Source: Octopus vulgaris
Lineage: Eukaryota
DNA: 64,000 bases
Assembly (NCBI GenBank): GCA_951406725.2
Contig: OX597814.1
Location: forward strand, 192,386,001-192,450,000
Direction: 5' to 3'
Part shown: positions 8,270 to 54,626 of the stretch, piece by piece
How the letters are laid out: each line of letters opens with the position of its first letter
Position numbering within the stretch: the stretch's first letter is position 1
The notes under the pieces: generated by a model
What the model saw: the letters and a program-made list of their open reading frames with translations, nothing else
Databases searched by the model: none
Told to the model about the DNA's origin: nothing
Made by a program: the position numbers and the translations under genes

Positions 8270-11100
8270 CAGATGGAGCCACAGATGCCTCAACCTCAGC
8301 TCGTGCCTGAGCATCATCAGCCAAGGCATCCCTAGCCCACCCTTTGACGGTTGTGGCAGCAAATACAGCGTCTTGCGAGCGGATTCGAGGCCTTCCACAA
8401 GAAGCGGAAGAGCTGTCTTTCTAGCTTGTTCAACCACGAATCAGTGCAGGGGACGACGGTTAGGTGGTATGTGATGACCAATGCGATGAACACATTGGCC
8501 ACCTCCGCCCTCCATTTCAGGGATAGCCACCGCCAAGACCAGGTCTTGGCTATGTGGGCCACCCTGTTCGCTACCTCGGCCCAGTTCTTCTCTATTTGGA
8601 GGCCTGGTCCAAACCAGACTCCTAGCAACTTAATCGGACACTCCGTCCAACGTCCCACGACGCTGTCAGGAGGCATCGACTTGCCTCTCCAGATACCGAA
8701 CTGCAATCCGACTGACTTTCCACGATTAACCTTTGCTCCTGCCACCGTCTCGTATTCCTCAATGGCCTTGCCTACGCTCTGTAGGTCATCCATTTCTATT
8801 ACGATGATGGTGATGTCGTCCGCGTACGCTGAAACCGACTCTCCACAACCTAGTTGTCTCTGGATGTTGCTCAATTATCGTAGCAATGGCTCAAGAGCCA
8901 TTACATAGAAAAACGGGGAGAGCGGACACCCTTGACGAAACGAGCTTTCGATGCTGAACGGCTTAGATAAAAAGCCGTTCACCCGAACTATCGAGTCGAT
9001 GTTGTGATAAATTTCAATGATCCACCCGAGGAAACCAAGTCCCAGACCGAACCGCGCCAGCACGGACACCAGGTAATGATGGTCGACCCTATCAAAAGCC
9101 TTTGATTGGTCTAAATGGACCACTACCCCTCCCTGCCAGAATCGTTATTAAACCCTCTACAGTGTACCGTATAATATGGATATTATCCTAAGTGGATCTA
9201 CCTGGAACGGCACATGTCTGTGCCTTCCCGATTAAGCCATCCGCACCACACTCTAATCTTTTCGATAACACTTTGGCCAAAATTTTCAACTCCGTGTTTA
9301 GCCGAGTGATGGGCCGAAAATTCTCAATGCAATCCCCCTTGTTCGGGTCCTTTTTAACAAGCGCTACAACTCCCCGGCGCACAGATCTGGAAATGAACCC
9401 ATTCTGCTGCCAGTTCGTAAAGACATTCGCCAGCAAGTGCCCGAACGAGTCTAGCATACGAGTTTAGACTGTTCAGTCCCGGCGCCTTACGCGCGCCGCA
9501 GTTCGCCATAGCCTCAATTACCTCTTCAGGCATGATCGGCCCTTCACAACGCTCCGTGTCCTGCCCCGATAGGCGCGGCAGTCCGGTGAGGAAGTCCATT
9601 AGATCCCTCCTACTGTCCGGTCCGCCACCCCCACCGAAAAGCTGGTCGAAGTGCTCCTGAAAGACCTCACACATCTCTTCGGGCTCGTTTATCAACTTAC
9701 CTCGTTGGTTCGTCAAAGATCTAATTGTGCCATCATTGTCACGTTGGGCTTCCACTACTCGGGCCCATCAAGCGACCTGATGTCATTAAAGAAGTGACCT
9801 TGCTTCCAGCTTGACCCCAGGCCACGCACATTCAAACAACCAACATGAATACAAGCCATCTACTTACCTTGGCATCAGTGGCTTTCAGCCTTGTCCTTTT
9901 CCGAGCTCGTGGAGTGGTTTGACATAGGTCCTCGTACATGGACTTACTGAAGGAGGCGATATTGGTGTTTTTTGTTTGTTTTGGTGAATAGTGGTGGGGA
10001 GGGGTAGTTTGAATTTCGTGTGTGTCTGTTGAGGGAGCTTTTTTCTTGTTTGAGCTGGATGTTGAGGGGGTGATATTGTTGTTCTTCCTTTTAGTTAATT
10101 TTCTTCCTTCTTACGGTAGACCACCCGTCTTCACTCCCAGCTGGTTGAGTTTTTTCATAGCTGGGAGCCTGCTGGTCGGTCTTCTGTGTCTCTGCCTCTT
10201 CTGCGTCCTTTTTTTGGGCCGTCTCCACCTTACGGGTAGGACAGTTTGTCCGAATGTGGCCTTTCTCTCCACATTCGAAGCACCGGGGTCTTCTCCCCTC
10301 CACCATTACCCGCAAGGTGGTTTCTTCTCCGAGGTGTATGTTCTCTATGATCTTTTCCAGAGTCTGTGGCGCCGCTTGGTTAATGACCTCGAGGTCTTGC
10401 CCCTCCCAGTTCTGCTGGTGTATTTTGGGGGCCTCTAATATCGTTATTTCTTCTATCCCCATCAGTAGGGCTGGGAATAAATTGATACATTTATTTCTGG
10501 CGGGATCTCTTCTATCGTGATCTTTGATGTGCGCCTGCCTAAGTATGCTGGCAGCAACACAATGTCCGTGGTTCTCAAAGGTTGTACTGAGTGTGTTTTT
10601 GCTTTCTCTTCAGTTTTGAAATACACTACTACAGTGGCAAAGCGTTTGCCTCTGGTCAGTTATTCTATGTCCTGCCAGATCGGCTGCAGGCATTTTTCTA
10701 TAGCTTCTTTTGGTGCTTTGTCAAGTTTCTTCTCCTTTACAACAAGAGTTTTAAATACGACAATTCTTTTTTTTTTCGCGGTTTCTTCTATGATTTCACT
10801 CGGGAGGGTGGCTTTTACGACATATCCCTCCTTTGAAAACATGTTTTGGTGCTGTATTATTACACTTCGGTCAACACATAATTTTTTTGTTTCACTCCAG
10901 CCGCAGCTGCAGAATTAATCTTTTTTTTTTTTTTTTTGCCGGTTCTAAAGTTTTTCTGCCGTCGGCATACTTAATATTTCACAGGTTTTTTCCTCTGCAG
11001 AGGAAGTATTCATTTTCAACAAAATAAATTTGAGGAAAAACGCCACAAATGGAAAATTCTCCACTTACAGAGGGGAATAAAAGTTCACTTCGTCTGCCAC
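8270..11100 (-). mobile_element. Degenerate Tx1/L1-clade LINE (ORF1 zinc knuckle plus fragmented APE-RT ORF2)
   Basis: ORF1 remnant with CCHC knuckle CFECGEKGHIRTNC (10091-10462); APE start MACIHVGCLNVRGL near 9858 followed by an internal deletion; RT motifs NFRPITRLN, LDQSKAFDRVDH, RQGCPLSP and AYADD split over frameshifted ORFs 8332-9755. Confidence 0.85.
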
Positions 11101-22127: not shown

Positions 22128-22135
22128 TATAAATA
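22128..22135 (+). promoter_or_regulatory. TATA box of the Ly6/Gly-rich gene
   Basis: TATAAATA about 60 bp upstream of the ATG at 22189, with an Inr-like agtca about 28 bp downstream of it. Confidence 0.6.
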
Positions 22136-22188: not shown

Positions 22189-22237
22189 ATGTACTCCCGG
22201 AGTGCAACGTTGGTTCTTGTCTTCATCTTCTGTGCAG
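22189..22237 (+). CDS. Secreted Ly6/uPAR-domain Gly-rich protein, exon 1 (signal peptide)
   Basis: caacATG start, MYSRSATLVLVFIFCA, then G|gtaaaa donor. Phase 1 joins exon 2 in frame to give signal peptide MYSRSATLVLVFIFCAAPAVWS. Confidence 0.75.
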
Positions 22238-22606
22238 GTAAAATACACTAATATAGTTCATATTTTCCTTTTTGTTTGCGTTAATAGTAATTTCGTTGTT
22301 AATTGTAATTTCTTATTTTTAATTCGCTTATTTAAATATGTACAGCCACCGATATTTTGTGTCTGACGTAATGAAACGACTCCATTTTGTTGAGTGACAG
22401 GCGTTAGAACTGGCTGAAATTAGAGGCCATGTGAAATTCTTTTATTATAATTTTAAGAGGAGAATTTGATCTCACCTCTTCGTGTTGTTGAAATATTCTT
22501 TAATAATATATACGTTGGCCAACTCGGTAGGGTGACGGACAGAATGATTGGGAGTATTTAGTTTTACTTCTTTAGGTTCAGGTTTCGAATCCTACAAAAG
22601 TCAAAG

Positions 22607-23014
22607 GGATCTTTTCGGTTTGAACGGCAGTTTTTTTTCTAGCGGTGTCATATGAAATTGTCACCCATAATTATGACCCTGGTATCGATCTATTGCATTT
22701 CAATCTGTTTTAGGGTTACGGGGAAGAGTATCTCTTTTTCTTCAGAAATGTAAATAAACCCAATCTGTTTCTTAAACGAGGCACATATTCATACGACACA
22801 GAATGTTTTCACCTCAATAGACGTCATTGATTGGTTGAAATTGCAGAAATTGAAGAAAAAAAACAACAAATATCTTACAAACTATAGAATTTTCTCAATA
22901 AAGCCAAGAAAAAAAGATGTTTTATAAACACATTCTACCAGTATACGAAGTTTAAAAGTGTTTAGTTACGTGGAAATTATTAAAAAAAAACTGCCGTTCA
23001 AACCGAAAAGATCC
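22607..23014. mobile_element. Second copy of the Merlin-like MITE (opposite orientation), in intron 1
   Basis: TIRs ggatcttttcggtttgaacggcag / ctgccgttcaaaccgaaaagatcc; body is the reverse complement of 12819-13250; TSD not preserved. Confidence 0.8.
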
Positions 23015-23186
23015 GGTTGTAATAATCGAGAACGCGCCTCTTTTTCTGGATGGGAAACTATGTACCTATATCAGAAAACTATAATATACTGTTACTAACA
23101 TCATGAGGTTGTTCTTACTGTTGATTACACAACGTTTCCACTGTCTGAAGTGGAAATGAAGTCAGCGAATTTATGTATCTTGAAAG

Positions 23187-23628
23187 TTTTACTCATTTAC
23201 TTGCGTCAGTCATTTGACTGCGGCCATGCTGGAGCACCGCCTTTAGTCGAGCAAATTTACCCCCAGAACTTATTCTTTGGAAGCCTAGTACTTATTCTAT
23301 CGGTCTCTCTTGCCGAACCGCTAAGTTACGGGGACGTAAACACACTACCATCGGTTGTCAAGTAATGTTGGGGGGATAAACACAGATACACAAACATATA
23401 CACACATATACATATATATATATATATATATAAATATACATATATATATAAATATACATATATACGACAGGATTCTTTCAGTTTCCGTCTACCAAATCCA
23501 CTCACAAGGATTTGGTCGGCTCGAGGCTATAGTAGAAGACACTTGCCCAAGGTGCCGTGCAGTGGGACTGAATCCGGAACCATGTGGTTGGTAAGCAAGC
23601 TACTTAGCACACAGCCACTCCTGCGCCT
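23187..23628 (-). mobile_element. SINE family A
   Basis: Full-length copy of the family A sequence. Confidence 0.85.
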
Positions 23629-23633
23629 TGGGT

Positions 23634-23745
23634 ATGCTCAAAATGCACACCTACTCGTTTCCTACCCGCGAGTGCCTCACCCGTGGAGGACGTGGCGATA
23701 ACACCTGCCGGCGGTGCGGCAGCGCATCCGAGAGGATCTCCCAGG
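23634..23745 (+). mobile_element. Fragment of an R2/NeSL-type LINE zinc-finger region
   Basis: GC-rich island translating MLKMHTYSFPTRECLTRGGRGDNTCRRCGSASERISQ, resembling the PTR..RG...CRxCG..ExxSH motif that precedes the RLE domain. Confidence 0.45.
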
Positions 23746-26139
23746 AAAATTCTAAAGTAGAGGCCCACAATCTCTTCCACAACCCTTAGAATAGTGTCAT
23801 AAATGTTTCTTCTTATACTTGATAGTATTTACAGCCAGGCAGACAAAGACCCACTGACCAAGAAGTTAGATTCGTAAAATCAGTTGAGCTTTGTGATACA
23901 TAGTTACGTCTCTTCACGTTCTGCGTTTAAATCTCTGACAATACTAATTAGTTTCATTGTCCTCACATCTCTGACAACATCAATTAATCCAATTGCCCTC
24001 ACATCCATTATGATATGCAAACAGTCGTAGATATCTTGATGTTTATCACCTTCGGTTACTTTCTCTTCTCAATGATCGTCAGTACAGTTTCAACAGTCGT
24101 ATCTACTGGAAACTTACACTTCTACATCACACTGCGCTCTCATATATCCTCATGGCTAATTATTCGGCTACTTGAGTTATATCTATTATCCCTGGTATAC
24201 CTCAGGGTTCTGTTATGTATTTCACGCTCTTCTTTCTCTACATGAATGACCTCACTCTTACTTCTAAGCTGACTCTTATACAAAGACTATTACACGTTAA
24301 GGCACCTTAATGGCTAAACTTTACAATAATGTCAACTAATGGCAACCTCAAAGATCAATCTTTTCCTTTTATGCTATTTCAGTTGATGAAATAATTATCC
24401 GTTAAGTACTGGGTATAATTTGATTGTACCGTTTCTCAAACTTTGAGGCCTTGTGCCTCATCAATCATCAGCCAAGTGCCCTTGCTACGACCAGGGGTCA
24501 GCTATCCAAGATTCTCCATTTCCCTCTCTGCTGTGCTGCATGCATACACCCATCCAGGCTCTTGTTTCCAGTCCATTCTTTGACGTCGTCGTCTACAAAT
24601 ATCTTTGACGATTTTATGTCTTATGTTCTCTTCTCTTGAATACTTTCTGTCAGGATGGTCTTGGGAAATAACTCGTGGCACAATCTACGTCCAAATATGA
24701 TGGGTTTATGGACTTGATTTTCGACACTAGGCATCTTCGAACTTCCATTTTTTCTAGTACTGCAGCGTTTGTTACGTTGTTTTCCAACTTATTCTGCCCA
24801 AACTGCGAGACATCTACGTCTCAAAGACATCCATTGCTCTGTGCATTGTCCAAGCTCGACACCAAAAATGTAGGTCGTTTATATAATGTGGACTCTACCA
24901 AAATGAACAAGATAGCGTTTATGCTTTTTCCTACACCGATGTTATCACAATTCTGACCTTTCCTGTCGTCTGCCTCAAATACTCAGCTTCTTTTATTTCA
25001 CTGTATCGTGCTGTTTTAATGCTGCTGCTATGACCAAAATTTTCCTCATCTTCCTCTGCGTCAATACTTCTCAGCCTTTTGTAACTCAGTCCTTCTTCTT
25101 TCACTAGTGTAGGGTGTGTGCAGACCGCACAAATGGGTAATTCTGTACATGCATTTACTGTAGTCGAAGGTATGTTACGTTTAAGGAAGGGTGGTCGATT
25201 TGGCTTCTTCACAGAACGGCCCTAAAAACCCAGCCTTTTACCGAAACGATGCTTTACCCCGTCTAAGATTTTTTTAAGTAGAAATTTATTTTAATCAAAC
25301 TACCCTGTAGTTTATTATTCATATTTTTATATTCTATTCCATGTAAGCCTGAGAGCCGTGGGTTAGGGATCCGGATGAGCATTTACCTATTTAACGCGGT
25401 AGTTTGACAAAATCATTAGAACATCTGACAAAAAATGCTTCATAGTATTAGTTACAAATCTTACAAATCCTACCGATGTTGTTCTTATAACTGTTTCCTA
25501 CCCGCTGAAATCAATACCAGTGATTATTCGTTGACAGATACATCTGGTAACAGAAAGATCAAACAAAGCAATAGTCTATTTACATGTCCTAGTATATAGG
25601 ATAAAAAGATAATAGTAATAATGGTCTAGTGGTTAGGGCAACGGACAACCGGTCGAAAGATCGCGGTTTCGATTCCCGGACCGGGCGTTGTGTGTGTGTT
25701 TATTGAGCAAAAACACCTAAAAGCTCCACGATGCTCCGGAAGGGGGTGGTAGTGATCCATGTTGTACTCTTTCGCCACAACTTTCTCTCACTCTCTCTTC
25801 CTATTTCTTGAGTAACGCTGCGATGGACTGGCGTCCCCTCCAGCTGGGGGGAACACATACGCCACAGAAACCGGGAAACCGGGCCCATGAGCCTAGCTAG
25901 GCTTGATAAGAGCGACGTTTATCGTTTTTAATACAAATCAAGTAATGTTGATGAAGTATTTTCTCCGAAACGTTAGGCTACTTCTTCCTCGCGGCTCTAT
26001 TTGAATTATTTGTATTACTTTTTTGTCCGCTAGTTCACTGTATTACCGTACAATATCATAGAGACTAGTGATTGTCCACCTTTTGTACTTCAGCGCTATT
26101 TTCTTTCAAATCATTCTCCAAAAGAACGTTACTCTCTCT

Positions 26140-26541
26140 CTTTACTCATTTACTTGTTTCAGTCATTTGACTGTGGCCATGCTGGAGCACCGCCTTTAGT
26201 CGAGCAAATTGACCCCGGGACTTATTCTTTGTAAGCCTAGTACTTATTCAATCGGTCTCTTTTGCCGAACCGTTAAGTTACGGGGACGTAAACACACCGG
26301 CATCAGTTGTCAAACGATGTTGGGGGGACAAATACAGACACACAAAGATTTACACACTCACACATATACATATATACGACAGGCTTCTTTCAGTTTCCGT
26401 CTACCAAATCCACTCACAAGGCTTTGGTCGAGCCCGAAGCTATAGTAAAAGACACTTGCCCAAGGTGCCATGCAGTGGGACTGAACCCGGAACCATGTGG
26501 CTGGTAAGCAAGCTACTTACCACACAGCCACTCCTGCGCCT
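26140..26541 (-). mobile_element. SINE family A
   Basis: Full-length copy ending 70 bp upstream of exon 2. Confidence 0.85.
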
Positions 26542-26610
26542 GACCAGGTTAAGACAAAACCTCACTGATATAAATTAACATGAAATTTCAATTTTTTTTA
26601 AAACTTTCAG

Positions 26611-26886
26611 CGCCAGCAGTATGGAGCGGTTATGGAAGTTCAGGTCATAAAGGTGGCGGAGGTGGTGGCGGCAGCGGTGGCGGCGGCGGTGGCGGTGGCG
26701 GCGGTGGTAGTTGGTCAGGTGGTGGAGGAGGAGGAAACAATCTCAAGTGTTACGACTGCCACAGTGGTTCCGCAAGTTATACTTACAAAGATTGTCCGGT
26801 CAATGGAAATTTGAACGGCCAGAACTTAGCAACTATCAACTGTGATGGTTTGTGTTTCTCAAGAACAAGCAAATGGGAGAAAGGTG
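26611..26886 (+). CDS. Secreted Ly6/uPAR-domain Gly-rich protein, exon 2 (Gly tract and first half of the three-finger domain)
   Basis: Acceptor ctttcag|cg, donor G|gtaagt, 276 nt, phase 1-1; encodes APAVWSGYGSSGHK(G/S)n...LKCYDCHSGSASYTYKDCPVNGNLNGQNLATINCDGLCFSRTSKWEKG. Confidence 0.9.
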
Positions 26887-26959
26887 GTAAGTACATTTGA
26901 GTTGAATATTTTGGCATTATCTCCCCTGGGAAAATGTGCATATACACACATTCACATGA

Positions 26960-26994
26960 TCTCTCGCTCTCTCTCCTCTCTCCGTCTCTGTCTT

Positions 26995-27043
<49 letters not shown>

Positions 27044-27345
27044 TTCTTTCTCTCTCTCCCCTCCCTCCCTCTCTCTCTTTCCCTTTCTCTCTCCCTTCTT
27101 CTCTCTCTCTTTCCCTCCTTCTCCCTTTCTCTCTCTCCCCCTCTCTCTTTCTCTCTCTCTCCCCTCTCTCTTTCTCTATCTCCTCCCTCTCCCCGTCTCT
27201 CCCTTTCTCTCTCTCTCCCCTTTCTTCCTCTCTTACTCACGCACATGCACAAACGCGCGCACACACACATTCTCTCTCACTCGGTATCACTCTCCCCCTC
27301 TCTCTCTCACACACACATTTTTTCTCACTCTCTGTCTTTCTCTTT
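26960..27345. repeat. (CT)n pyrimidine-rich low-complexity tract
   Basis: Directly visible. Confidence 0.9.
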
Positions 27346-27470
27346 AAAATTCAGTCTTAACTTTATCTAGAAGAGGTTGTCTCCTCTACGATAGCTGACC
27401 ACCAGGAGCATACCACACGTAAATATCACTGTACTTCTCCCGTAAAATTAAATACTGTGTGTGCCTCTTT

Positions 27471-27698
27471 ATTTACTCTTTTACTTGTTTCAGTCATTTG
27501 ACTGTGGCCATGCTGGGGCACCGCCCTTAGTCGAGCAAATCGACCCCAGGACTTATTCTTTGTAAGCCCAGTACTTATTCTATCGGTCGATTTTGCCGAA
27601 CCGCTAAGTTACGGGGGACGTAAACACATCGGCATCGGTTGTCAAGCGATGTTGGGGGGACAAACACACACAAACATATACATACATACATACATACA

Positions 27699-27769
<71 letters not shown>

Positions 27770-27925
27770 GACGGGCTTCTTTCAGTTTCCGTCTACCAAA
27801 TCCACTCACAAGGCTTTGGTCGACCCGAGGCTATAGTAGAGGACACTTGGCCAAGGTGCCACGCAGTGGGACTGAACCCGGAACAATGCAGTTCGTAAGC
27901 AAGCTACTTACCACACAGCCACTCC
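27471..27925 (-). mobile_element. SINE family A
   Basis: Family A copy with an expanded (CATA)/(TA) centre. Confidence 0.85.
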
Positions 27926-29374
27926 TATTTATTCATTCATTTTTTCCTTCATCCTTGGTTACTAGAACTTCAATTTTTCTGGGGTTTTTTCTTGTATGCA
28001 AGTGGTATAGTGATGGTAATGATGACGATGATGATGGTGATGATGACGATGATGATGGTGATGATGACGATGATGATAATGCATTCTACAACAGATTTTC
28101 ACATTGTAACTTCAAGATTCATACACAGTATCCATTCTCTTATCTTCAAGGGTTGGTTGTGGTTGCTTAGCTCCAAGTTACCCTTTATTTGGCGGATCTA
28201 TGATCAAAAGCTTTCTTCGACAACTATCCTATTTTCTTTAGACCATAGCATCAAACATGTCTATTTTTTCTTTTTTTTTTCTTTAAGACAGTCGATTGTA
28301 ATTTGAGGGAGATATGGTTTCCATTTCTAGTATGTCTAGCGCCCAGATAGAAGCCTCCTTATTACTTGTCTGACTGAGCGGCTTTTATGAAGATGGTATT
28401 ATTCATAGTTTTTTTCAAAAACGTTTAATTCATACACCTCGAGTTATATCATGCTGACGATTACTAAAAAGAATGAAATAGTACTCTGATTACTAATGAC
28501 TAGAAATTTTTAGAACTTTGTAATAAGTAAACAAGAAAAGTAAATATGCATCTTTTTCGTTGTTATTCCTTAATTTCAAATTCAAAATCTTAATCTTGTC
28601 AAATGTTATGAAGAAATGATTATCTCCCTTATTCTAACTGTCCGCTCGAGAACTCCGCGTATTTAATCCAATACGTTTCGTTATTGAAACTCAAATGATT
28701 ATTATAGAGACAATTGTTGTTGTTCAATCCAAGGTCAGCGCTGATCGAGCAAACCCACGATCAAAGTCATTATAGCAATGACAATTCTATGCGTTTTCTT
28801 TTTAAGTCGTAGTATATTTAGGATCATTCTTTTAACGTATCCTTTTGTTTTAAGTGGATACAGTGTATTTTGAAAGAAATTTGGCTACTATTTCTCGAAT
28901 GACGAGCGACCGCATAAAGACTCGCTCATTAGCTCATTAAAAAAATTGACTGAGCTGACCTAAGATCTATAGGCATTTCATCCGTGACCATTCCGTCTTT
29001 TTAAGGTTACTTATGCCTAAATTAACCAATGTATCCTTTCAATTTTTAGAGACAACAGGGTGTGATTTGAAGGAGACATAACTGCTTATTATTGGCAGAG
29101 TGACTATTTAGAGGCTCTTCGTGATCCTGTCCGTGTTACGATAATAGCGTTTTTCATTGATCAGTTTTCAATCGAAATCCATAGATTTTTACTTCATTGC
29201 TTTTTTTTTCGTTTTTGTTCTTTCCTTCTTTGTCTAAGTCAGTTATAATCCCCTTCATATCTGGATGCTATATGGGAATGCAATAAGAATACTTCTGATT
29301 TAGTTATCACTGGTGGCGATTTTATAGAGTTGGAAGATGGATGCAAGAACAAGTAGTTTGCGTGAATATATAAA

Positions 29375-29943
29375 TATTGGGTTGTCTGGAAAGGTCGTGC
29401 CGATTTATAAAGGAAAGAAAAAGGTCAATAATACTTGCCATTACATTTTTAATCAACCAAATATGAACCATTTTGTTGCACAATGTGTCTCCATCTTTCC
29501 TTTAACTTGAAAATACCCTCTTCCCAGAATTGAGGTGGTTTCATAGCAAACAATTCATCAAGGTATCTTTTTACGTCATCCAAGGAATTGAAATTTTTAC
29601 CATTAAGACTATTCTGCAGAGACCTGAATAAGTGGAAATCTGAAGGAGTAATATCTGGTGAATATGGATGGTGGGGTAACACATCCCAACCGTGCTGCAG
29701 CAATTTTTGTCTGGTTCCCAAAGCATCAAGTGCCGAAAATGAACTTTCTTATCTTCCATTTTAAAGGGTTACAGAATTAACACAGGTTATAGGCACATAA
29801 ATCTTCTTCCACGAAAAGATAGCTTAAACTGTGCTCTAAATGGAGGTGTAGTCAAATCCTATTTTATGGACTCGACCATGTTCTAAAATAAGTCGAAATG
29901 TAAGCTGCTATAAATCGGCACGAACTTTCTGGACAACCCAATA
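29375..29943 (-). mobile_element. Internally deleted mariner element, in intron 2
   Basis: TA-flanked TIRs ttgggttgtctggaaaggtcgtgccgatttat / ataaatcggcacgaactttctggacaacccaa. Transposase N-terminus MEDKKVHFRHLMLW is fused out of frame to the C-terminus WDVLPHHPYSPDITPSDFHLFRSLQNSL (mariner YSPDL motif). Confidence 0.92.
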
Positions 29944-30662
29944 CAAATATGGTTATTTATCGTTAAACAAAACAATGTGACGTCGTTACGACCAATGACT
30001 AGATAGAAATGTTTGCAGCAGATAAATAGTTCAACTGTTTGTGAGGATGTTGCTGTCTAGAGAATCACAGTAGTTGTGAGAGTCATTTGTATAAGGTTAA
30101 GACGTGTGCCACCACTGGCAGCTAGCGGACAGCGAATTCTATTTATAGATAATGTTTCTGTCAAGGGAAAAAGGTGCCGAAAACAAAATTTTAATGACAT
30201 CCCCCTTCTAGTCGAGATCCAAATGATCGGTTCTTTGCTGGCGTCATCAATAATTGAGCGAATCACGATCATTGCGATACAGTGATTTTGTACCAGAGAT
30301 TTGATCGGACAGATGTTTGCTGATGTCATCAAGCTCTAACAAAGTCCTGACCGTTCTAATACAGCGATCTGGATTCAATTTGTTGGTAGTGAATTAGTGT
30401 TTAGGACACTACTACAGGAATATTAAATCGCTCCCCAGAATTTTACTGCTACTTTTTTTTAGCGTTCCGTTCAGGATAAATGAGAGACAAAGATGACATC
30501 AGTCGGTTTTGAACTCAGAACATAAAAAACCGTAAATAAACACCGCAGGTATTTTTTCCCAAGTTCTTACCATTCTGACTATCTACCGACTGATATTTTA
30601 AAAATCTTTTCTCTCCACAATTTCTTTTATTTTATCATCCAGTTCATTCATTTTCTTTTCAG

Positions 30663-31363
30663 TTATCTACAGGGGATGTTCATCAGCTTTCCCCAACTTA
30701 CCAAGTAACCTGAAACCTGGATGTATCGATTTTAAAGGTGAATCGTGGTGCATGTGTTCGAACGATCTTTGCAACACTGATGACATGGGCAGCTACATAC
30801 ATGGTGGCGGCGGCGGAGGTGGAAGTGGCGGAGGCTCATGGGGCGGTGGTGGCGGTAAAGGTGGTAATGGTGGAGGAGGAAAAGGTGGAAATAATGGAGG
30901 TGGATCGTGGGGTGGTGATGGTGATGGATCGTGGGGAGGTGGTGGATCGTGGGGTGGTGGTAGTGGTGGATCATGGGGTGGTAACGGAGGTGGTGGCAGT
31001 GGGTCAAAGGGTAGTCACGGAGGCGGTGGAAGTGGATCGTGGGGCGGAAACGGAGGTGGAGGAAGTGGGTCAAAGGGTGGTCATGGAGGCGGTGGAAGTG
31101 GATCGTGGGGTGGTGGCAGTGGGTCAAAGGGTAGTCATGGGGGCGGTGGAAGTGGATCTTGGGGTGGTAACGGAGGTGGTGATAGCGGATCATGGGGTGG
31201 CGGAAGAAAAGGTGGAAATGGAGGAGGTGGCTCGTGGGGAGGTAGCGGTTCATGGGGTGGTGGAGGCAGCGGAAGCGGTGGAAGTAGTGGAGGCGGTGGA
31301 AGTAGTGGAGGCGGCGGAAGTAGTGGAGGCGGCGGAAGCATTGGTGGAAGTTACGGACGTTAA
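30663..31363 (+). CDS. Secreted Ly6/uPAR-domain Gly-rich protein, exon 3 (end of the three-finger domain and GSWG repeat tail)
   Basis: Acceptor ttttcttttcag|tt, phase 1; VIYRGCSSAFPNLPSNLKPGCIDFKGESWCMCSNDLCN completes a 10-Cys LU domain with the CxxxxCN signature; then about 190 aa Gly/Ser-rich ending SYGR* (TAA 31361-31363). Spliced CDS is 1026 nt. Confidence 0.9.
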
Positions 31364-31475
31364 CGAAGATGACGTAAGCCATAACACGCCTTCAATCTCA
31401 AAGACTTCAGGAACTGTCTTCAGCTTTCTTCAATATTTTCTGCCTGAGAAACTCTTCTCTGGTCTTTCATCTGTT

Positions 31476-31481
31476 AATAAA
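31476..31481 (+). terminator. Polyadenylation signal of the Ly6/Gly-rich gene
   Basis: AATAAA about 110 nt after the stop codon, followed by a T-rich downstream element. Confidence 0.6.
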
Positions 31482-31545
31482 ATTTCAAACTGACTCCTGG
31501 TATCCTGTTTATCTTTACTCTTCTTATTCTTTTTGTTATATATCA

Positions 31546-32017: not shown

Positions 32018-34450
32018 CATTGTGTACAGTGCTCAGGTGCACTACAACTCATCGAAAGTGTATATATAATCAGGTGTAGTTTCGACGGATTTCGGAAAGC
32101 ATGAGGGCCTTAAAGGATGCAGTGTCATGGCAGTCAACAACTGACGCAGGCAGTTTATTCCATGCTTCAGCAACTCTGAGTGTGAAGAAATGTTTCCGAA
32201 AGTCATGGGAGCTGTGTTGTTTTCTGACTTTGTAGGCATGTCCACGTGTGTTAGACACATGGAGATCAAAAAGGTGTTCAGTGTTGTTATTGGTGAGGTG
32301 GTTGACAACTTTGTGGGTGTTTACCAAGTCCGTCGCCAGACGCCGGAGCTTCAGTGAATCCATGCCCAGGGAAACAAGGCGCTCAGAATATGGTAGGTGT
32401 CTGATGGAGGGTATGCGTTTGGTTGCACGTCTCTGAACAGATTCCAGGAGGTCAATGTTCTGAGCAAGATAGGGGTTCCAAACTGATGATGCGAATTCCA
32501 AGTGTGGTCGTACCATAGCTGTATACAGTTTTAAATAGATGGCTGGAGAGCGGCTAACAAAAGTCTTGCTGAGTGATGCCAAGACACCCTCGGCCTTCTT
32601 GACAATTTTAGAGATATGCTTTGTCCAACGCAAATCACTGCTGACAGTGATGCCTAGGTCACGCTCGCAAAAGGATTTCCTGATATCAGTGTTGTGGAGG
32701 GAGTATGTGGACGCAGGGTTTTTTCTCCCAAAATGCATGGTGGTACACTTGTCCACAGCCAGTTTCAGTTGCCAGTCTGTGATCCATTGCTGCATTGTGT
32801 CCAGGTCTGATTGCAGGAAAGAGCTGTAGACAACAGGATCTGTCCTCTTGATTTCAAGGTACAGCTTGATGTCGTCTGCATATTTTAATACTGTGGCATT
32901 CTTTAAATTTGCATCTATGTCATTAATGTATGCCACAAACAAGAGGGGACCAAGGACAGATCCCTGTGGTACACCCGATGACATCTCATATGGTGTAGAA
33001 TGCTGTCCTAGAACTGTGACTACCTCCTTTCGGTTGAGAATGAAGGATTTCAACCAGTTAAAAAGGTCATCCCTCACACCCATTGCAGAGAGTTTCACCA
33101 TAAGCCTTTTGTGTGGCACAGAGTTGAAAGCCTTAGCAAAGTCAAGGTAGACAACATCCACCCATGAGCCACTGTCAGTGATCTGAGTAATGTCCTCAAG
33201 GAACTCGACAAGCTGATCACTGCAGCTGGAGTTAGGGACAAATCCATATTGTGAGGGTCGGATGAGACTGTGTGAGCTCCAGAAGTTCCAAAGTGTTTCT
33301 CTGACACACGATTCCATCAGTTTTGCAATACAGCTAGTGAGACTGACTGGGCGATAATTGACAGGTGATGTGCGGTCGCCCTTCTTGAACAGAGGAATGA
33401 CACTGGCAGTTTTCCACTGTTCCGGAGTAGCACCATTGTTGAGACAGTACTGGAAGAAAGTAGAGAGTTGGTGTAAAAGGAAGTACCTGCCACGTTTGAG
33501 AAGCAGGTATGTAACTCCATCAAGACCAGGGGAGGCATAGTTGCGCTTATTTTGAAGGTGACGTCGCAGCATTGCAGGTGTAAATTCCATAGTTGTTATG
33601 GAATTTGCTGTTAGAGATGGTGAAGATGGTACATTTTGACTTTCAACAGTGAATATGTTTGCATAGCACTCGGCAATGAGTTCTGCGCATTCCTTGGGGT
33701 CGTCAGTGATCTGGTTTGTGTGAGGGTTGCGAAGAGGGCCCACTGGAGAGTGAGGTCTCTGCTTCGAATGCACATATTTCCAGAAAACCTTGCTGTCAGG
33801 ATTGGCTGCTATGCACTGTTCAAATTCAAGCACTGCTTTTTTTGTCACTTGCTTGAGATGGTTGGAAGATTTATTCCGCTTCTTCCTGTTGGTTCTGATT
33901 TATGCAACTTGTATTCCTGTTCAGCAGTTCGACGTTCCTTCCTGGCAAGTCGGACCGCTGAAGTTTCCCAAATTGCACTTTTGGGGCGGTTCTTCTTTTT
34001 CTGTTTACATGGCACTGATGCTGCACATGCATATTGAGTCCAGGATACCCTGGAGTATAGTATTCACATCTCCAGAGTTGTAGAATTCACGCCAGTTTGG
34101 GTGCTGTAGTTCAGTGTGGTACAGGTTCCAATCTGCTCTCTTCCAATCGAAGGAAGCAGTTTGGAGATGGTTCAGGTTTTTGTTGCCCGCAAGAGCCAGA
34201 TTGGCGATGATCATAGCATGATCAGAGTCACCTAGAGGTTCCTCCGTAGTGCAATTGATAACCGCTTCAGGAGTCGTGGTGAAGAGCAGGTCCAAGGTGT
34301 TGTCGCCTCTTGGAGAGGTGACTACTTGTGACCAGTTTCAGTCCAGTACAAGCTCAACAAAATCGTTTGCACTCTGTGGCCAATGGAAGGTTTCCCAATT
34401 GATTTCAGGATGATTGAAATCGCCTGCAATGAAAACATAAGTGGCTGTTT
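31979..34450 (-). mobile_element. CR1-like LINE, 5'-truncated, with (ATT)n tail
   Basis: APE remnant (GDFN, LDLLFT, PLGDSDH) at 34005-34450, frameshifts near 33900-34030, then the open RT region and a 3'UTR ending in (TTA)n. Confidence 0.9.
32070..33848 (-). CDS. LINE reverse transcriptase ORF2 remnant (592 aa open frame)
   Basis: [60 protein letters not shown] and WNKLP motifs; no true start codon because the upstream part is frameshifted. Confidence 0.85.
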
Positions 34451-41465: not shown

Positions 41466-41911
41466 ACTCGGTAATTTTTTTAACAAAATTTGTTTCTAAA
41501 ACCTGCACACAGTCAAAAACTTCATCTTTTTTATTTGGTGTAAGTGCTGCATCAAGATATTATACTTCTCAGCCAAACATAAATGCAGCTTTTTGATCCA
41601 TTGGGATATGAGTATGCAGGTCCAACAAAGCTCTAGCTCAGTGTATCCCAAACTTTTTGGGCTGCTTGCCCACTTAACACCCAGGCCACATTCCTAGCAC
41701 CCCCACCCCAACTAAGCATCACAAACATAGACCTCTTTCTGAAGCAAATTCAAAGCAACTGTATTTCACAAAAATAACTTAACCTAATGAACCCATTCTT
41801 TTGTTTTTACACAAATCGCTACCCCATTATTGATCAGGGATAAGTCAAAGTTAAACAACAGTAAAAATTTTTCGGGGAAAAAAAACTGGTACAAAAACTT
41901 AAAGACCTTAC

Positions 41912-42048
41912 TTTTCTGGAGTAATTCCAAAGTTTCAACCCGTTCACTATCAGGTAATACCTTGTGTCCTGGTGGAACTGTTGGGTCTGGTAAACTGGCA
42001 ACCCTCTCTTCCTCATCTTTCACCCACTGTGCCTGTCGTTCTTTTAAA
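41912..42048 (-). CDS. ENKD1: ENKD1 coding exon 5
   Basis: ttttag|T...A|gtaagg, phase 2-1; LKERQAQWVKDEEERVASLPDPTVPPGHKVLPDSERVETLELLQK (enkurin PDP..PPGH..P..ER.ETL motif). Confidence 0.92.
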
Positions 42049-42215
42049 CTAAAATAGCAAATAAAACATAGAAATAAGTCAGACAATGGACAATAAAAGC
42101 ATTTCAAATGTGAACAAATATTGAGAATAACAAAAAATTACGGAGATGTACTTGCATAGCAAGTGACCTGATCTGAGATTGTGTGCTGGAATGAAAAAAA
42201 TTGTAGTGTGGAAGG

Positions 42216-52875: not shown

Positions 52876-53115
52876 AATGTATGCAAAACTGTGTCAGTTC
52901 TCGTTTGATGCTTGTATATTTCTAGAATAGAAACACTGATAAAGTTAATTTAGCCATCGCTTTCATAATTAACTCGTTATTGATTTTTTATTAATTAGCC
53001 AACATACTGTTAGGAAAAGAGGAATGTCTAGAATAATGGATGGTCAGTGGCTTCAGTAAACAAAGCCAGTCCGCACAATAAATGTGTGAATGTATAACTT
53101 CCAAGTTGAAGCAAA

Positions 53116-54200
53116 AGATAAGAGAGATGGTGAGTAGAGGTAAGAGAGACGGTGAGTAGAGGTAAGAGAGACAGTGAGTGAGGTAAGAGAGACAGTGAGT
53201 AGAGGTAAGAGAGACGGTGAGTAGAGGTAAGAGAGACGGTGAGTAGAGGTAAGAGAGACGGTGAATAGAGGTAAGAGAGACGGTGAGTAGAGGTAAGAGA
53301 GACGGTGAGTAGAGGTAAGAGAGACGGTGAGTAGAGGTAAGAGAGATGATGAGTAGAGGTAAGAGACACAGTGAGTAGAGGTAAGAGACACAGTGAGTAG
53401 AGGTAAGAGACACAGTGAGTAGAGGTAAGAGAGATGATGAGTAGAGGTAAGAGACACAGTGAGTAGAGATAAGAGAGATGGTGAGTAGAGGTAAGAGAGA
53501 TGGTGAGTAGAGGTAAGAGAGGTGGTGAGTAGAGGTAAGAGAGATGGTGAGTAGAGGTAAGAGAGATGGTGAGTAGAGGTAAGAGAGGTGATGGGTAGAG
53601 GTAAGAGAGGAGATGAGTTGAGGTAAGAGAGACAGTGAGTAGAGGTAAGAGAGATGGTGAGTAGAGGTAAGAGAGGTGATGAGTAGAGGTAAGAGAGACG
53701 GTGACTAGAGGTAAGAGAGACGGTGACTAGAGGTAAGAGAGATGGTGAGTAGAGGTAAGAGAGATGGTAACTAGAGGTAAGAGAGGTGATGAGTAGAGGT
53801 GAGAGAGGTGATGAGTTGAGGTGAGAGAGATGATGAGTAGAGGTAAGAGAGACGGTGAGTAGAAGACAGACGGTGAGTAGAGGTAAGAGAGACGGTGAGT
53901 AGAGGTAAGAGACGGTGAATAGAGGTAAGAGAGATGGTGAGTAGAGGTAAGAGAGATGGTGAGTAGAAGTAAGAGAGATGGTGAGGAGAGGTAAGAGAGA
54001 CGGTGACTAGAGGTAAGAGAGACGGTGAGTAGAGGTAAGAGAGATGGTGAGTAGAGGTAAGAGAGATGGTGAGTAGAGGTAAGAGAGATGATGAGTAGAG
54101 GTAAGAGAGACGGTGAGTAGAGGCAAGAAAGACAGTGAGTAAAGGTAAGAGAGATGGTAACTAGAGGTAAGAGAGATGGCAAGTAGAGGTAAGAGAGATG
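53116..54200. repeat. 22-bp minisatellite (gagtagaggtaagagagaYggt), about 49 units
   Basis: Directly visible tandem array; strongly purine-rich on the plus strand. Confidence 0.95.
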
Positions 54201-54626
54201 ATATTGTGGTTCACCTATTGCGCACTCAGTACACTGTGGATTTCTTTGGCTAATATATGTAAATTTATATTGTGGACTCCTCAGTATATCAGGGTTTCTG
54301 TGGCTAAAGGTATTTATATTTTTTTAGATTTTTATTATTTCTGTGGGAGGTTTTGGAACGTAACAACCGTGATAGTCAAGGGATTGCTGGATATGTTATG
54401 TATTTATTAGATAATAAAACGTATGGTAAATACCTGGTAGCTTACTAGTAAACCATGTTCACTTTCACAGTGCTCGTTGTGTATTTGGTCAGTGAGGGAA
54501 GATAGAAGATACAAGAATTTTTATTATTATTGATTTTCTGTGTAAATGAAGTTATATCCTATAATTTGCTGCTTTTCTTTACACGAACTGAGAAGATACT
54601 GTGCGGAACTGTCATTGCTTTAGTGA

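Follow-up and report, generated by a model that had tools for sequence, protein, structure and literature searches.

We analysed a 64,000-nucleotide (nt) stretch of the Octopus vulgaris genome (contig OX597814.1, positions 192,386,001 to 192,450,000 of the forward strand; the window hereafter) and found in it a three-exon gene for a protein that joins a predicted three-finger (Ly6/uPAR, LU) domain to two Gly-rich blocks and ends without a membrane anchor. The gene is real, its layout is common to at least two octopod families, and its long Gly/Ser/Trp tail is polymorphic in length and is shown to be under coding constraint. Apparently, the protein is a conserved, undescribed octopod variant of a known superfamily and of a modular mollusc subfamily. 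We give about an even chance to its being secreted into a matrix or coat, where the tail would assemble and the domain would dock, a proposal every functional step of which we infer.

Gene structure and transcripts

The gene lies on the plus strand with TATAAAT before it and AATAAA behind its coding part, and splicing of its three exons yields a single frame of 341 amino acids (aa) followed by a stop. Both introns are GT-AG with pyrimidine-tract acceptors, and both lie in phase 1. A preliminary description of the same DNA had proposed this three-exon model, with phase-1 introns and with a TATA box and an AATAAA flanking it, and its coordinates proved exact. The features are as follows:

22128..22134, plus strand: candidate TATA box TATAAAT
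22158, plus strand: initiator-like TCATAAG, 30 nt after the start of TATAAAT
22189..22237, plus strand: coding part of exon 1, 49 nt, the first 16 predicted signal-peptide codons (best of 5 candidates)
22238..26610, plus strand: intron 1, phase 1, 4,373 nt, GT...AG
26611..26886, plus strand: exon 2, 276 nt, with the end of the signal peptide, the N-terminal Gly tract and domain Cys 1-5
26742..26886, plus strand: first half of the three-finger domain, C1-C5 (profile match and alignment)
26887..30662, plus strand: intron 2, phase 1, 3,776 nt, within the domain (GT-AG; RNA contigs)
30663..31363, plus strand: coding part of exon 3, 701 nt
30663..30775, plus strand: second half of the three-finger domain, C6-C10, with the CN end
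30776..31363, plus strand: 195-aa Gly/Ser/Trp tail and stop, with 11 GSWGG and degenerate 33/66-nt repeats
31364..31493, plus strand: 3' untranslated region, AATAAA at 31476-31481; 31493 is the last position of contigs from two studies

The spliced protein contains 152 Gly, 55 Ser and 15 Trp and consists, in this order, of a predicted signal peptide, a Gly tract, a 10-Cys domain and a Gly/Ser/Trp tail. The blocks outlined in the preliminary description measure 38 residues (27 Gly) before the domain, 86 aa for the domain itself (residues 61-146) and 195 after it. Signal-peptide and anchor calls were based on Kyte-Doolittle (KD) hydropathy: a hydrophobic core with a KD value of 2.8 starts at residue 6, with cleavage likely after Ser22 by the -3/-1 rule, and no hydrophobic C-terminus was found, the best 12-residue mean in the last 40 aa being -0.09. 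Exon 1 is the nearest of five signal-peptide exon candidates in the upstream 26.6 kilobases (kb) and the only one at which a TATA box accompanies strong hydrophobicity; as a control, the minus strand yielded 13 candidates over 64 kb, one of them with a TATA box. This assignment, and with it junction 22237/26611, is made from the genomic letters, the RNA contigs having been examined at 30300-31545.

Over that interval, the contigs of 4 of 24 listed runs were examined (four studies, three organism labels); the runs are presumed to be RNA (14 guessed as such, none recorded so) and carry no tissue labels. Each of the four has a contig beginning at 30662, the final acceptor letter before exon 3, and depth is zero just upstream of it, at 30552-30635. 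The loose end of run X19 matches the last 30 letters of exon 2 at 29 positions and the intron at 6, and in the other three contigs the stretches beyond the acceptor (211, 242 and 186 letters) could lie within exon 2 to judge by their length. Because of the starts at the acceptor edge and the X19 loose end, we regard the examined contigs as spliced, in support of junction 26886/30663, for which an RNA check had been suggested.

One X1 contig continues unbroken from the exon 3 acceptor to 31018, deep in the tail. In X1 and X5, contigs extend past the stop as far as 31493, which is 12 nt beyond AATAAA, and an X6 contig reaches 31486. No joint leading out of exon 3 is listed in the contigs of the examined runs. 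The starts, continuity and ends of the contigs thus indicate that the domain is spliced and that the tail lies on the same exon, with no later anchor exon. This agrees with the earlier view of a secreted protein (the signal peptide being predicted by hydropathy) with a single three-finger domain and neither a glycosylphosphatidylinositol (GPI) signal nor a transmembrane segment. Contig depth was 4-7 times lower over the tail, whose GC content is 61%, than over the domain in three runs. A short isoform was considered from this and not accepted, since depth cannot rank the parts of a gene; no joint or loose end was seen at a matching donor place among the 20 of 47 loose ends shown. Four runs from the same species had a zero share and are uninformative on tissue specificity.

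The domain, its mollusc relatives and its history

A HMMER search with the first half of the domain against 1.84 billion representatives gave 12 matches at E <= 0.001, four of which were dropped (P0005, P0012 and P0014 for want of the Cys pattern, P0004 as a half domain); P0015 and P0017 were also left out of the analysis. Argonauta hians GAB1599296.1 (P0003, a partial model of 144 aa) is the best match, at E 3e-16. In this model a Gly tract precedes the complete domain, and the Gly tail behind it is covered at its start only, up to a GSW. The Octopus and Argonauta domains are 71% identical (33/50 in the first half, 35/46 in the second), while their Gly tracts have diverged, and in the tree the two genes are grouped (89/93), the deeper order being left open. 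Gly content is 24% in Argonauta, 45% in Octopus and 3-8% in the other relatives. Argonauta and Octopus belong to different families of Incirrata; the term "lineage-specific" used earlier therefore stands in a limited wording, the layout being shared by at least these two octopod families. With the whole of P0003 as query, only P0003 itself was returned among 8,000 candidates.

The domain holds 10 Cys in 86 aa, with a C-x2-C start and a CN end. All ten Cys are invariant in 24/24 aligned domains, as is a Pro after C3, and a Met stands four residues past the final CN in most. Taken by halves, the Octopus domain falls below the Pfam cut-offs: the first half matches QVR positions 1-41 (E 0.029, 15.8 bits; cut-off 27.3) and the second DUF7622 (20.5 bits; cut-off 28.2). 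The Argonauta orthologue reaches 28.0 bits against PF17064 QVR (cut-off 27.3) over positions 2-86 of 86, and a local profile built from 22 relatives, with neither the Octopus domain nor the Argonauta row among them, gives the Octopus domain 99 bits.

The fold was modelled with AlphaFold2 on the Argonauta domain, standing in for that of Octopus. The best model has six strands and a predicted confidence (pLDDT) of 92; three of the five models lie at 66-70. An unbiased structure search with the Argonauta model returned three-finger folds in 38 of 43 rows, among them C4.4A (the best match: Z 7.1, root-mean-square deviation (rmsd) 4.5, 77 aligned residues), CD177, TEX101, GPIHBP1, TGF-beta receptor ectodomains and snake toxins, whereas no unrelated row exceeds Z 2.5; rows that differ by less than 1 Z unit count as tied and indicate no function. 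Foldseek agrees on the fold, but with a best E of 0.024 and no row at E 0.001. A three-finger fold is thus predicted, in line with the identity first proposed. In Ly6/uPAR domains the disulfides pair C1-C5, C2-C3, C4-C6, C7-C8 and C9-C10. Three groups of aromatics, Tyr73/Tyr75, Trp105/Tyr111 and Phe132/Trp137 (sequence positions), are common to Octopus and Argonauta.

Other searches added little. Sequence searches of the PDB gave nothing relevant, and an Atlas search gave no match with exon 3 and, with the Argonauta domain, leads under 0.9 only, mostly to three-finger families. A word-indexed search with the exon 3 half gave no candidate and missed even P0003, and is hence insensitive. In the genome, DUF7622 found nothing above its cut-off, and the QVR search, with 6 matches in 13 candidates, failed to find the present gene, so that its counts are lower bounds.

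Sixteen database proteins were compared, and all the named relatives are uncharacterised mollusc proteins. One paralogous exon agrees at 42 of 42 positions with a database protein labelled Octopus vulgaris. Four of the 16, octopod orthologues of two paralogues on contig C2, have a hydrophobic GPI-type C-terminus (KD 2.6-2.8), and these anchored paralogues are 28-34% identical to the Octopus domain; the other 12 have no hydrophobic end (KD <= 1.3; some models partial). The seven closest non-octopod domains (38-48% identity) are all unanchored, and the closest relatives include a bare secreted abalone protein of 112 aa. Searched against the genome, this abalone protein finds the present gene first (E 1.4e-6 and 2.8e-4) and the paralogues at 0.025 or worse. 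Some unanchored relatives (257-924 aa) carry the domain at the very C-terminus behind Ser/Thr-rich blocks, and one chiton relative has an acidic tail.

Because the closest relatives are unanchored and the anchored paralogues more distant, the Gly blocks were probably added to a mollusc Quiver-like domain that was already secreted: an unanchored gene of this kind would have gained Gly-codon repeats on both sides before the Octopodidae/Argonautidae split. We clearly favour such an addition over the replacement of a GPI signal by the tail, which the preliminary description had suggested. Under replacement, the ancestor would be a paralogue with a GPI anchor, and loss of the splice donor behind its domain would have let it read into a repeat-rich intron. 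This is unlikely, yet it has real points in its favour. In both C2 paralogues, which share the position of intron 2, the conserved Met that follows the last Cys is directly followed by a GT donor, and a fourth exon supplies a hydrophobic GPI-type signal at its end; at the place of that donor the Octopus gene has GC and reads on, which looks like a lost donor and counts against simple addition. The tree, moreover, leaves the relevant node, and so the order of events, unsettled. On the other side, the nearest proteins by identity are unanchored gastropod and chiton ones (38-48%) and the anchored ones reach only 28-34%, the first genome match of the bare abalone protein is this gene and not a paralogue, and no convincing relic of an anchor exon was found in the 33 kb downstream (7 weak candidates). 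The layout is also less exceptional than first described, low-complexity blocks standing beside the unanchored domain in snail and chiton members. Two things lower the surprise: such blocks are commonly joined to small folded domains, and lack of an anchor is nothing unusual in this subfamily.

The subfamily is varied in other ways. On C2, two convergent QVR-like genes with a GPI-type fourth exon lie at G000:C2:123772869-123804253 (L012-L015), plus L022; one has two domains (P0019) and the other a 140-aa disordered stalk (P0021), and their fourth exons, found independently in the genome, were confirmed by these two database proteins. Gastropod P0006, P0010, P0022 and P0024 have a Cys-rich N-terminal domain, for which no convincing Pfam match was found, a Ser/Thr-rich linker of 30 to ~600 aa and an unanchored C-terminal three-finger domain, and gastropod P0007, P0009 and P0018 are tandem arrays of two to four copies. 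Three canonical QVR first-half exons within 130 kb (G000:C5:49957042-50083940, L005-L007) form a separate Quiver-like cluster.

The glycine tail and its possible roles

The tail counts 117 Gly, 37 Ser, 11 Trp, 6 Lys, 2 Arg and 2 Tyr in 195 aa, has no Pro, Ala, Val, Leu, Gln or Cys, and is mildly basic (isoelectric point (pI) 9.5, net charge +3). All 11 Trp lie within GSWGG, and, compared with 20,000 shuffled sequences, the aromatics are more evenly spaced (minimum gap 6, p 0.007; coefficient of variation, p 0.02). Taken together, the Gly blocks make up ~230 of the ~320 mature residues (~70% of the mature chain) and are predicted to be disordered. Between the runs and the window, 9 of 12 tail substitutions are silent against 26% expected (binomial p 5e-4); of the three others, two replace Ser or Arg by Gly and one replaces Gly by Ala. 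All seven tail indels between runs are multiples of three, a count qualified by the tendency of Gly-codon repeats to slip in threes anyway. Composition and frame are thus kept and length drifts, in the way expected for a spacer. A 15-nt in-frame insertion at 31237, absent from the assembly, occurs in X1, X5 and X6, and the Arg to Gly change at 31205 is common to X1 and X6.

We reject a chance open reading frame in a GGN microsatellite, given the mixed Gly codons (48/46/22/4), the silent bias and the orthologue. The tail had been called silk- or loricrin-like, and of this a Gly-rich polymer under coding constraint stands; the comparison is otherwise loose, the tail lacking Ala, Pro, Gln and Cys, and we reject membership of either family. 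Loricrin is intracellular, with Gly/Ser/Cys loops and Gln/Lys cross-linking ends, against 0 Cys, 0 Gln and a predicted signal peptide here. Silk fibroins have poly-Ala or Gly-Ala crystalline blocks (PMC9999432), against 0 Ala in the tail. Three HGGGGSGSW copies at 30975-31160 were also noted in the tail. They resemble HGGGW of the prion octarepeat, a copper-binding motif, and might bind metal.

For the protein as a whole, we prefer a role in an extracellular matrix or coat. After secretion, the tail would act as a sticker-and-spacer chain: the evenly spaced GSWGG Trp would join chains via aromatic and cation-pi contacts (with the 6 Lys and 2 Arg), and the Gly/Ser spacers would leave the network soft and hydrated. 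Locked by disulfides and bearing aromatics in each finger, the domain could dock this network on a scaffold such as chitin or a partner matrix protein. The sticker-and-spacer model describes evenly spaced aromatic stickers in a Gly/Ser spacer, and the tail sequence has both; we read it so because ~70% of the chain is Gly/Ser spacer with regular Trp and a kept composition. Each chain has one domain, so the multivalency once suggested would need assembly. Among mollusc matrix proteins, secreted proteins that are rich in Gly and of low complexity recur as a class (10.1101/2021.07.10.451900), and phase separation has been proposed as a common building route for such materials (PMC9999432). The insect three-finger protein Retroactive acts in cuticle organisation, with chitin binding predicted via its loop aromatics (PMC3561106), and the octopus has a chitinous sucker cuticle and Kölliker's organs (PMC5607860). 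Candidate sites, among which we make no choice, are the sucker or gut cuticle, Kölliker's organs, and egg or spermatophore coats. Three-finger domains are otherwise familiar as ligands of receptors and as regulators anchored in membranes; the conserved octopod layout points to a structural use of the fold, which would be notable if true, and its simple tryptophan-glycine sequence could serve in the design of soft underwater materials.

Several observations weigh against this role. Besides the slippage of Gly codons and the partial Argonauta model mentioned above, the even Trp spacing and the in-frame indels are partly due to the repeat structure itself, residues that commonly cross-link or crystallise such chains are scarce or absent in the tail (2 Tyr, 0 Cys, 0 Gln, 0 Ala), and the aromatic positions of the domain are mostly common to anchored relatives. 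Structural protein genes often expand, whereas no second copy of the tail was found here in the genome (1 match among 104 scored candidates), nor a further tail or a local gene cluster in the 144 kb surrounding the gene. Three-finger proteins as a rule modulate membrane receptors (PMC11595613), and Retroactive itself has been argued to act by Knickkopf trafficking and not directly on chitin (PMC3561106).

No neighbouring paralogue was found within 40 kb of the window; in the search for relatives with the same tail, the genome gave none and Argonauta gave its orthologue, with Gly tracts on both sides of the domain. Another Gly-rich exon, L019 (G000:C4, ~7992000, minus strand), contains Tyr, Met and Pro and was cross-mapped in 3/4 runs; with its Pro-rich continuation it belongs to a different gene. 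Three peptide motifs and the word "quiver" were not found among the 3,654 rows listed from the supplement of a skin-mucus proteome (PMC10138644) or in that of an ink proteome (PMC10142993), weak negatives because the databases may lack the protein. The same terms were not found among the rows listed in a posterior-salivary-gland supplement (PMC7693380, mostly protein-level tables), which is likewise weak.

A bolder form of the matrix proposal, which we hold only tentatively and think unlikely in full, is that a receptor-ligand fold has been turned into the docking head of a self-assembling material. The domain would grip chitin or a matrix partner, and the Trp-stickered Gly chain would form a soft coat by coacervation, perhaps the sucker cuticle that is shed. 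The protein would then be the first three-finger structural protein and a new block-copolymer design. Nicotinic-derived touch-taste (chemotactile) receptors lie in octopus suckers, and a protein made there could link the cuticle with the receptors beneath.

Among the other functions considered, a soluble modulator of a nicotinic-type receptor, a chemotactile receptor or a K+ channel, with the Gly blocks as solubility, diffusion or retention tags, is improbable, though the likeliest of these. Modulation is the usual role of the fold (PMC13719153; PMC11595613), the domain is strongly conserved between Octopus and Argonauta (71%) while the tails drift, and bare secreted abalone relatives exist, so the domain works without a polymer. 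However, a Gly-rich share of ~230 of ~320 mature residues with a strictly kept Trp motif would be superfluous for a simple ligand, and receptor-binding members do not stand out among the fold matches (C4.4A is the best, at Z 7.1 and rmsd 4.5). Surface defence has a poorer prospect: the Gly/Trp/Lys tail, whole or clipped at basic residues, would be antimicrobial in mucus or egg coats, and the domain would recognise a microbial or host surface. The tail is indeed mildly basic and rich in Gly and Trp, and Gly-/Trp-rich antibacterial peptides have been reported from snail mucus (PMC13176007); its charge density, however, is very low (3 in 195 aa) and, unlike those snail peptides, it has no Leu, Val or Pro. 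Least probable of all, by a little, is a gamete-recognition or reproductive-tract protein of the ACRV1/SP-10 or fish Bouncer kind, its domain binding the surface of sperm or egg and its polymer packing it in a granule or coat: three-finger proteins do act in vertebrate reproduction and fertilisation (PMC13719153), and the top structural rows include TEX101 and the multi-LU C4.4A and CD177, but rows so closely tied show no function, and high conservation between families is atypical of species-specific recognition proteins.

The rest of the window holds microsatellites, fragments of long interspersed nuclear elements (LINEs) and a weak enkurin-domain exon. The latter, an exon-like frame at 41787-42137 on the minus strand (Enkurin match, E 0.22), is probably part of the 3' neighbour gene and a useful synteny marker. 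LINE-type remains lie just downstream of the gene (32073-33899, minus strand; reverse transcriptase, E 3.5e-37) and upstream of it (8335-10609, minus strand; reverse transcriptase and zinc knuckle). A long degenerate tandem repeat at 52994-54323, open in several minus-strand frames, is probably non-coding.

Comparison with known systems

The architecture was unfamiliar to the preliminary description, and no description of the protein or its layout was found in the literature searched (most subscription papers lay outside the search). A survey of 387 invertebrate genomes reports 2,086 three-finger proteins in 25 mollusc genomes, with C1q, fibrinogen-like, Ig, MAM and Kunitz as new partner domains, and the main text of this 2026 paper makes no mention of Gly-polymer fusions (PMC13719153); its domain-based method would file the Octopus protein as a plain LU protein. 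Searches of the protein collection did not return the Octopus protein at full length, and annotation-based surveys may therefore miss it. In starfish, three-finger members are mostly GPI-anchored, 2 of 48 being likely secreted (PMC11595613).

Shematrins, KRMPs, squid beak proteins and abductin resemble the Octopus protein in being secreted, Gly-rich, repetitive and fast-changing. They differ in that no three-finger domain is reported in the source passages used, and their stickers are Tyr, His or Met where those of the tail are Trp; in this comparison the Octopus gene also stands apart in that no gene family was found for it. SLURP-1/2, PATE and snake three-finger toxins have the signal peptide and three-finger fold that are predicted for the Octopus protein and likewise lack an anchor, but are mostly bare, have the vertebrate Cys spacing and show ~12-30% identity in structural alignments. 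ACRV1/SP-10 combines a repeat block with an unanchored LU domain, though its repeats are not Gly/Trp and stand only before the domain. Retroactive, compared by description, is likewise a three-finger protein with ten Cys; it has loop aromatics and a tie to cuticle assembly, but counts ~150 aa, is membrane-held, works in Knickkopf trafficking and carries no polymer (PMC3561106).

Closer in sequence is the Quiver/Sleepless family (PF17064), with which the Octopus protein shares the 10-Cys spacing, the C-x-C-x4-CN end and the RGC strand; Quiver/Sleepless proper has a GPI signal, whereas the Octopus protein has none and carries two Gly-rich blocks. Quiver/Sleepless proper binds Shaker or nicotinic receptors. 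The nearest likeness is to the mollusc QVR-like proteins (Haliotis XP_067661634.1 and XP_046543381.1, Gigantopelta XP_041370842.1, Liolophura XP_064616775.1, P0022 and P0024), which have the same domain subtype (37-48% identical) and no hydrophobic C-terminus, several of them with long Ser/Thr-rich or acidic low-complexity blocks. These proteins are uncharacterised and lack Gly-rich blocks (Gly 3-8%, against 45% in Octopus), and the comparison thereby exposes a mollusc subfamily in which the same domain occurs bare, anchored, in tandem or on long disordered blocks.

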